Part shown: piece by piece, positions 42,906 through 43,016 of the stretch
Layout of the letters: every line of letters starts with the position of its first letter
Position numbering within the stretch: the first letter of the stretch is position 1
Assembly (NCBI GenBank): GCA_963791815.1
Contig: CAWBTT010000001.1
Coordinates: 41,720 to 105,719 of the forward strand
Source of the DNA: an uncultured Candidatus Micrarchaeota archaeon
Lineage (GTDB): Archaea > Micrarchaeota > Micrarchaeia > Anstonellales > Bilamarchaeaceae
DNA length: 64,000 bases
Reading direction: 5' to 3'
Made by a program: the position numbers and the translations under genes
Notes under the pieces: model-generated
Told to the model about the DNA's origin: nothing
Databases searched by the model: none
What the model saw: the letters and a program-made list of their open reading frames with translations, nothing else

Positions 42906-43016
42906 AGCCCCCGGCGAGATATATCCAACTGATTGACATTTTATCCAGTCAAAAAGTTCTTGAACTCACGACCTCGTCCTTACCAAGGACGCGCTCTACC
43001 GCTGAGCTACAGGGGC
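42906..43016 (-). tRNA. tRNA-Thr (anticodon GGU) with a 39-nt intron in the T-loop
   Basis: Manual fold: acceptor GCCCCUG/CGGGGGC (one G-U pair), D arm GCUC-AGCGGUA-GAGC, anticodon arm CGUCC-UUGGUAA-GGACG, T-stem GUGAG...CUCGC separated by a 7-nt loop plus a 39-nt insert. Discriminator U. Confidence 0.8.
42919..42957 (-). other. non-canonical tRNA intron (boundaries ambiguous by +/-2 nt)
   Basis: The insert ACUUUUUGACUGGAUAAAAUGUCAAUCAGUUGGAUAUAU contains helices AACU/AGUU and UUGAC/GUCAA, compatible with a relaxed bulge-helix-bulge. Confidence 0.6.

Follow-up and report, generated by a model that had tools for sequence, protein, structure and literature searches.

What is the 111-nt segment at 42906..43016 on the minus strand of the window (the whole 64,000-nt stretch of archaeal DNA analysed here), in which every part of a tRNA-Thr(GGU) cloverleaf can be read along with 39 extra bases inside the T-loop? 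We propose, with a probability of roughly 85%, that it is a functional and probably sole tRNA-Thr(GGU) gene, whose T-loop intron would be removed by an epsilon2-type endonuclease, the junction most likely lying between tRNA positions 58 and 59.

Anatomy and detection of an interrupted tRNA-Thr(GGU) gene

The sequence-only reading had described the tRNA parts on the minus strand from 43016 downward, and each of them was found at the coordinates checked. The features are as follows, all on the minus strand:

43038..43050, minus: TATA-box-like A/T-rich stretch, ~22-34 nt upstream of the mature 5' end, overlapping the stop codon of the upstream ORF
42960..43016 (to 42959 if the junction is 59/60), minus: exon 1, from the acceptor 5' strand to T-loop positions 54-58
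43016-43010, minus: acceptor 5' strand GCCCCUG
43007-42993, minus: D arm
42991-42975, minus: anticodon arm CGUCC-UUGGUAA-GGACG, anticodon GGU at 42984-42982
between anticodon arm and T-stem, minus: variable loop AGGUC
42969-42965, minus: T-stem 5' strand GUGAG, followed by UUCAAGA
42921..42959 at the favoured 58/59 junction (42920-42958 if 59/60), minus: 39-nt intron, placed by register analysis
42906..42920, minus: exon 2, with T-loop positions 59-60, CUCGC, CGGGGGC and the discriminator; CCA is not encoded
42918-42914, minus: T-stem 3' strand CUCGC
42913-42907, minus: acceptor 3' strand CGGGGGC
42906, minus: discriminator U
42897..42905, minus: oligo-T run UAUUUUUUU, directly 3' of the discriminator

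The anticodon GGU sits in a 7-nt loop on a 5-bp stem, which, together with orthology to intron-less genes, identifies the molecule as tRNA-Thr(GGU). The intron contains an inner helix AACU/AGUU (h'), a hairpin UUGAC/GUCAA and a GGAU segment able to pair with G53-C56; the first two, already noticed when the insert was first described, both occur in the minimum-free-energy fold. This fold consists of a cloverleaf with an additional hairpin emanating from the T-loop (-39.8 kcal/mol, z = -2.31), and 3 of 200 shuffled sequences fold as well. Upstream, the A/T-rich box at 43038..43050 would serve as the archaeal promoter of the gene, judged by the archaeal promoter consensus. Archaeal transcription terminates at oligo-T runs, and the run at 42897..42905 is likely the transcription stop. 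A scan for sigma-70 promoters and hairpin terminators, models that are not informative for an archaeon, returned one promoter-like match and zero terminators.

Standard tools pass over this locus, as the sequence-only reading had anticipated. ARAGORN allows introns only in the anticodon loop; it called two tRNAs in the 64-kb window and missed this one, and a run over the whole genome with intron search yielded 38 calls, none at 42906..43016. The Rfam scan of the whole window gave a marginal, mis-registered 30.3-bit tRNA match at 42944-43013. When the scan was confined to 42860-43060, with laxer filters that tolerate the insert, the Rfam tRNA model (RF00005) aligned 43016-42907 from end to end (model positions 1-70) at 48.5 bits and E 8.2e-10, with 41 nt in place of two consensus T-loop positions. 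This score exceeds the 29-bit gathering threshold of RF00005 over the full model and places the sequence in the tRNA family. Because of this end-to-end alignment, the tRNA pattern is far beyond chance.

We joined the exons in silico in 24 variants, retaining four to seven loop bases on the 5' side and zero to five on the 3' side, and 22 of these were recognised by ARAGORN as tRNA-Thr(ggt), with a top score of 119.9. The tRNA-model scoring proposed earlier as a check thus returned the expected identity. Joined exons were scored with ARAGORN, and the Rfam model was applied to intron-less orthologues standing in for them; the orthologous loci from seven related genomes scored 68-74 bits in seven of seven cases. 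Excision of 39 nt after position 58, 59 or 60 generates a 7-nt T-loop each time, at near-equal ARAGORN scores (119.9, 119.9 and 118.4), so the ambiguity of the splice junction noted from the bare sequence is real.

The same T-loop insert in related genomes

The genus comprises 40 genomes, including that of the window; 31 contain the 5' half of the tRNA-Thr(GGU) T-arm, and the T-arm was read in all 31. An insert interrupts the T-loop at the same site in nine of these genomes and is absent from the other 22, and it is also absent from six genomes examined from other genera of the same order. The inserts are as follows:

window genome: 39 nt
G035: 54 nt
G021: 67 nt
G012: 72 nt
G025: 73 nt
G027: 78 nt
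G003: 93 nt
G016: 104 nt
G013: insert interrupted by the contig end

The exons are nearly invariant across orthologues, and the inserts vary in length and sequence while sharing their first bases. Over positions 1-57, exon 1 is 91-93% identical to its orthologues, and BLAST alignments of the intron-less genes end at gene position 57. At its 5' start the window copy resembles that of G027, and the G003 copy resembles that of G016. On this comparison we regard the T-loop inserts of the nine congeners as orthologous, and their presence and absence across the genus reads as the gain-and-loss pattern described for archaeal tRNA introns (in the part of PMC4090602 consulted). The T-loop of the 22 intron-less genes is UUCAAAU in 15, UUCAAUU in five and UUCAAGU in two.

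In tRNA genes, the T-loop and the 3' end are frequent targets of integrating elements, and the 39 bases might accordingly be the leftover of a mobile element or of an integration event, or else a self-splicing intron, in place of an intron removed by an endonuclease. We consider either origin very improbable. No duplicated tRNA 3' end was found: a pattern search of the window for the 3' segment gave two matches at up to two mismatches, the single exact one being the gene itself, which rejects an integration (att) scar. No direct repeat flanks the site within 5 kb, and the 14 repeat families detected are short, chance-like pairs away from it. That nine genomes share the insertion site, together with pairing at the junction, likewise speaks against a scar. 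Group I and group II self-splicing introns are ruled out by the 39-nt size, since these families need hundreds of bases, and by Rfam, whose gathering-threshold scan of the window detected only two tRNA hits and no ribozyme family.

Eight of the nine intron copies are complete, and six of these eight form a strict h-B-H-B-h' motif (h and h', flanking helices; B, bulge; H, central helix) with the junction at 59/60. In these six, the intron supplies UGGA or UGAA as the partner of loop bases 54-57 (UUCA or UUCG), the helix stands exactly 3 nt from the T-stem, and a 3-nt bulge and an inner helix lie on the 5' side. The non-strict copies are those of the window genome and G003, which have 5 nt unpaired on the 3' side.

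Several further observations concern the congeners' genes, the first of them the orthologous tRNA-Thr(GGU) loci L034-L044, L049-L052, L014-L016, L018, L020 and L021. Twenty of the 31 genomes have the 5' acceptor strand at a distance of 45-255 nt upstream of the D-arm, as do 21 of 35 non-identical loci in a set that includes other genera; such a spacing implies an additional intron in or near the D-loop. Many congeners also carry a 37/38 intron in this gene, and those of G016 (L037) and G035 (L043) apparently have three, in the D-loop, at 37/38 and in the T-loop; the window copy has the T-loop intron only. The hexamer CATGAG occurs in five of the nine orthologous T-loop introns (L013, L015, L019, L029, L037) and is missing from the short window copy, and the G003 intron has CTGAGGA. 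Conservation of the hexamer may stem from a role in protein binding or a kink-turn-like fold, or from nothing more than common ancestry. Introns at 37/38 (L023, L029, L034, L036, L038) and in the T-loop (L001, L013, L017, L029) start alike, with GAAACUUUUUG-like bases, which hints at duplication or transposition between structurally equivalent loop positions.

Splice junction and bulge-helix-bulge register

A MAFFT alignment of the eight intron-bearing T-arms lost the 2-nt 3' offset of the window copy, and we assigned the pairing by explicit register enumeration, in which all 4-bp helices were listed and both strands were cut 2 nt beyond the central helix. The junction of the window gene departs from the strict hBHBh' motif (3-nt bulge, 4-bp helix, 3-nt bulge): its 5' bulge measures 3 nt and its central helix 4 bp, but whichever register is chosen the 3' side has 5 unpaired nt, giving a 3-4-5 layout in place of 3-4-3. 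A relaxed bulge-helix-bulge (BHB) can be formed with the central helix G53-C56/GGAU or U54-A57/UGGA, a 3-nt 5' bulge and an h' helix of 3-4 bp. A BHB-like structure at the junction, proposed earlier as a check on the gene, can therefore form, in the relaxed and not in the strict version.

Under the rule of cutting 2 nt after the helix, only the G53-U54-U55-C56 helix yields a 7-nt loop, both in the window genome and in G003. In the window gene this register consists of the G53-C56/GGAU helix, which includes two G-U pairs, a 5' bulge with A57 and A58 before the cut and G after it, and the inner helix AACU/AGUU, and it would leave a mature UUCAAAU loop. The corresponding register of G003 pairs GUUC with GAAC and gives UUCAAUU. 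On balance we favour 58/59 as the junction of the tRNA-Thr(GGU) intron, with UUCAAAU as the predicted mature T-loop, because of the cut geometry, the changes in a related contig, the GAAC of G003 and the layout of the host's tRNA-Cys(GCA). The earlier placement can thus be narrowed, with 58/59 more likely than a junction inside the last loop positions. Position 58/59 is also known from work on Thermoproteales.

The related contig, 172 nt long and from the DNA run X1, covers 42818-42984 with 18 differences and zero gaps (~89% identity). X1 is one of four runs compared with this stretch, all of them DNA contigs; no RNA run containing it was found. Since the alignment is gap-free, the intron length is preserved in a relative of ~89% identity. 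Among the differences listed within the gene, all eight are intronic, with none in the exon parts covered; four are located in the hairpin loop and one in the internal loop. Two others convert GGAU to GAAC, so that the 53-56 helix has Watson-Crick pairs in place of its two G-U pairs, and the G003 orthologue shares this GAAC. The last, U90>C, removes the final AACU/AGUU pair at a base that also pairs in the 54-57 helix.

The host's only tRNA-Cys(GCA) gene, at G000:C3:53710-53561 on the minus strand, is interrupted by a 40-nt intron in the anticodon loop and a 39-nt intron in the T-loop. The latter adopts the 58/59 layout, with GUUC/GAAC, a 4-bp inner helix and 4 nt before the T-stem, and ARAGORN calls Cys(gca) only when the T-loop intron is removed after position 58. 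The ARAGORN intron search had instead given a doubtful Cys(aca) call elsewhere in the genome.

The competing placement puts the junction at 59/60, as in the orthologues, with a U54-A57/UGGA helix, a 5' bulge with A58 and G59 before the cut and A after it, and a mature UUCAAGU loop; the 3' cut would then fall one base before C61, within the enlarged 5-nt bulge. We judge this placement unlikely, though several observations fit it. A helix at 54-57 with position 59/60 is what six of the eight complete orthologous introns have, UUCAAGU is the loop of two of the 22 intron-less orthologues, the spliced product scores equally in ARAGORN (119.9), and the 54-57 register is predicted to be the more stable (-10.4 versus -8.5 to -9.7 kcal/mol for the 53-56 helix). 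However, the usual cut geometry on the 54-57/UGGA helix generates a 9-nt T-loop, and a 7-nt loop requires displacement of the 3' cut by 2 nt. The U90>C change of the X1 contig disrupts the 54-57 helix, whereas two other changes perfect the 53-56 helix, and UUCAAAU is the loop of 15 of the 22 intron-less orthologues. The predicted energy does not settle the register: a fold without the central helix reaches -11.9 kcal/mol, and all candidate junction structures lie within 3.4 kcal/mol.

With 58/59 as the preferred junction of the window gene, the intron copies of the genus suggest, tentatively and somewhat short of an even chance, that one ancestral T-loop intron exists in two registers, strict at 59/60 and shifted by one base at 58/59. 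In the shifted register, the central helix would take G53 over from the T-stem, and the unpaired 3' stretch would lengthen to 5 nt. The shifted form would have appeared in two intron sub-families, the window copy resembling the strict copy of G027 and the G003 copy that of G016, and also in the unrelated tRNA-Cys. If true, this would represent recurrent one-base sliding of introns and supply a series of natural substrates for probing how the epsilon2 endonuclease gauges where to cut.

Host enzymes, known systems and other interrupted tRNA genes

The host assembly (1.47 Mb in 5 contigs, 46% G+C, 88% complete) belongs to a small-genome archaeon related to Candidatus Micrarchaeum (ARMAN-2). A mevalonate kinase-like ORF can be read near the tRNA-Thr(GGU) gene, and many host tRNA genes have introns, both of which mark the host as archaeal. 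ARAGORN with intron search identified only Thr(CGU) and Thr(UGU) as other threonine tRNAs. Genome-wide we found 30 GGU anticodon stem-loops, of which only the one in this gene coincides with an ARAGORN or Rfam tRNA call. The inventory of tRNA-Thr genes proposed earlier as a check therefore reveals no other GGU tRNA in the 88%-complete genome, and 42906..43016 is probably the host's only tRNA-Thr(GGU) gene; given this completeness, a second intact copy is possible. In 347 uncurated stop-to-stop frames of at least 400 codons, ACC accounts for 24.0% and ACU for 26.9% of threonine codons, together 50.9%.

The host encodes a 389-aa protein (G000 C4, locus L031:895-2061) that consists of an N-terminal domain and two catalytic-type domains of tRNA intron endonuclease. 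It matches the ARMAN-2 EndA (PDB 4fz2, 9w2k) over its full length (residues 5-389, E 3.3e-131) and conserves the residues aligned with the catalytic Tyr236, His251 and Lys282, as well as the counterparts of Tyr160-Lys161 of the ARMAN-specific loop; the residue numbers of the ARMAN-2 enzyme are from the part of PMC12397907 consulted. The endonuclease type, also named earlier as a point to check, is thus epsilon2. An RtcB ligase is encoded as well (555 bits), so that the host possesses both an epsilon2-type EndA and an RNA ligase, while the published activity on relaxed motifs is solely that of the ARMAN-2 enzyme (as far as the sections consulted report). By homology to that enzyme, itself assayed on other substrates, the host endonuclease would be expected to act on relaxed motifs. 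A second protein of 162 aa with one tRNA-intron-endonuclease catalytic-type domain (G000:C3, locus L032:1462-1947, minus strand; Pfam 42.2 bits) coexists with the epsilon2 enzyme, and its best PDB match is the M. jannaschii EndA (E 3e-10).

From these components a pathway can be proposed. The transcript would comprise the 111-nt body plus flanks. In this precursor, a short central helix would arise by pairing between the 5' part of the T-loop and the intron's 3' end, with the intron-internal AACU/AGUU on one side of the helix and the T-stem on the other. Both splice sites would lie in unpaired stretches beside this helix, a relaxed 3-4-5 BHB, where the epsilon2-type endonuclease may cut. RtcB would join the exons, and CCA would be added after joining. 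The functional intron-containing tRNA proposed from the bare sequence is supported by the joined-exon score, the BHB-like fold, the status of the gene as the only GGU tRNA found and the presence of the endonuclease, with splicing itself a prediction.

A decaying gene is the remaining alternative, and we think it improbable: the 3' junction would have drifted from the strict motif, resulting in poor cutting or mis-splicing to a 9-nt T-loop in a pseudogene, possibly an incipient one. The 3' side does depart from the 3-nt bulge of six of the eight complete orthologous introns, the T-stem has a U-G pair where 18 of 30 other genomes have C-G, and the genome is incomplete. However, the remainder of the exon sequence is intact, and no second GGU tRNA turned up. 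The layout is kept without indels in the ~89%-identity contig, whose differences spare the exons and helices, and it is shared by the G003 orthologue and by the host's tRNA-Cys(GCA). The host enzyme is furthermore of the type published to cut relaxed motifs (PMC3239211, sections consulted).

A functional gene spliced in this manner would have close counterparts in ARMAN-2, for which T-loop introns were published in 2011; the claim that archaeal tRNA introns at non-canonical positions exist in certain lineages agrees with this record. According to the parts of Fujishima et al. (2011, PMC3239211) drawn upon here, interruptions occur in 56% of ARMAN-2's tRNA genes, and the epsilon2 endonuclease cuts both strict and relaxed substrates in vitro, relaxed motifs having bulges of 1-4 nt or lacking one bulge. 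This tolerance is attributed to the ARMAN-specific loop in the portion consulted of a 2025 structure paper (PMC12397907). In the same parts of PMC3239211, the pre-tRNA-Cys(GCA) of ARMAN-2 carries a 13-nt intron at 59/60 with a relaxed hBH (bulge-helix-loop) motif that is cut by the epsilon2 enzyme in vitro. Like the window gene, it has a T-loop intron at a non-canonical position, a relaxed junction and an epsilon2-type host enzyme. The window gene differs in being a Thr(GGU) with a 39-nt intron, in having both bulges and an inner helix, in its 5-nt 3' stretch, in a junction probably one base earlier and in that its cleavage is predicted only. The ARMAN-2 pre-tRNA-Pro(GGG) has two T-loop introns, at 53/54 and 59/60, with a strict hBHBh' motif (PMC3239211, same parts); it shares the T-loop intron and the lineage, and its strict 59/60 form is that of six of the eight complete orthologous introns, whereas the window copy has one intron and a motif that is not strict.

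In Crenarchaeota/Thermoproteales, non-canonical introns are processed by (alpha-beta)2 endonucleases and lie at positions that include 53/54, 56/57 and 59/60 (Yoshihisa 2014, PMC4090602, sections consulted). Common to both cases, as far as these sections describe them, are a transplantable BHB, a broad-specificity enzyme that tolerates relaxed forms, and intron gain and loss among close species; the present enzyme is an epsilon2 and not an alpha-beta heterotetramer, and the lineage is another. The parts consulted of the ARMAN-2 paper (PMC3239211) and of the review (PMC4090602) do not name the intron position 58/59. Judged from geometry, 59/60 in the 7-nt T-loop would be the counterpart of 37/38, the canonical archaeal position, in the 7-nt anticodon loop: in both, a closing stem is followed by four loop bases paired to the intron and then by a 3-nt bulge. 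Unlike a canonical intron, that of the window gene is in another arm and is missed by ARAGORN. The window gene thus adds one more case to a published kind, in a lineage where it would be expected, and stands out by its 5-nt 3' stretch and its probable one-base shift.

The locus is of use chiefly for annotation and as a naturally occurring substrate variant; as a gene it is ordinary, though easy to overlook. Because of the ARAGORN miss and the marginal, mis-registered Rfam match, the genome would seem incapable of decoding ACC and ACU, which make up about half of its threonine codons, if the gene were left out. For biology the gain is modest: the ARMAN-2 picture of a broad epsilon2 endonuclease and heavily interrupted tRNAs is extended to a 40-species genus of environmental genomes, the presence or absence of one orthologous intron is documented among close species, and strict and relaxed natural variants of one junction become available for enzymology.

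The annotation gap extends to at least four more tRNA genes of the same genome. These four further genes with T-loop introns are the tRNA-Cys(GCA) gene described above and three located outside the window:

G000:C1:111304-111394, plus: tRNA-Ala(GGC), 19-nt T-loop intron, strict motif, 59/60
G000:C3:121845-122036, plus: tRNA-Arg(CCG), 118-nt T-loop intron, strict motif, 59/60
G000:C2:324235-324093, minus: two-intron tRNA, 36-nt T-loop intron, strict motif, 59/60

ARAGORN found none of these three in unspliced form. In the window itself, two ordinary, uninterrupted tRNA genes are present:

18350-18436, minus: tRNA-Leu(GAG)
21399-21474, plus: tRNA-Arg(GCG)

For the two-intron tRNA, ARAGORN reports Arg(tct) once the intron is removed, and its 5' AGCGGGG and CUCAUAA loop suggest that it could be initiator-like.
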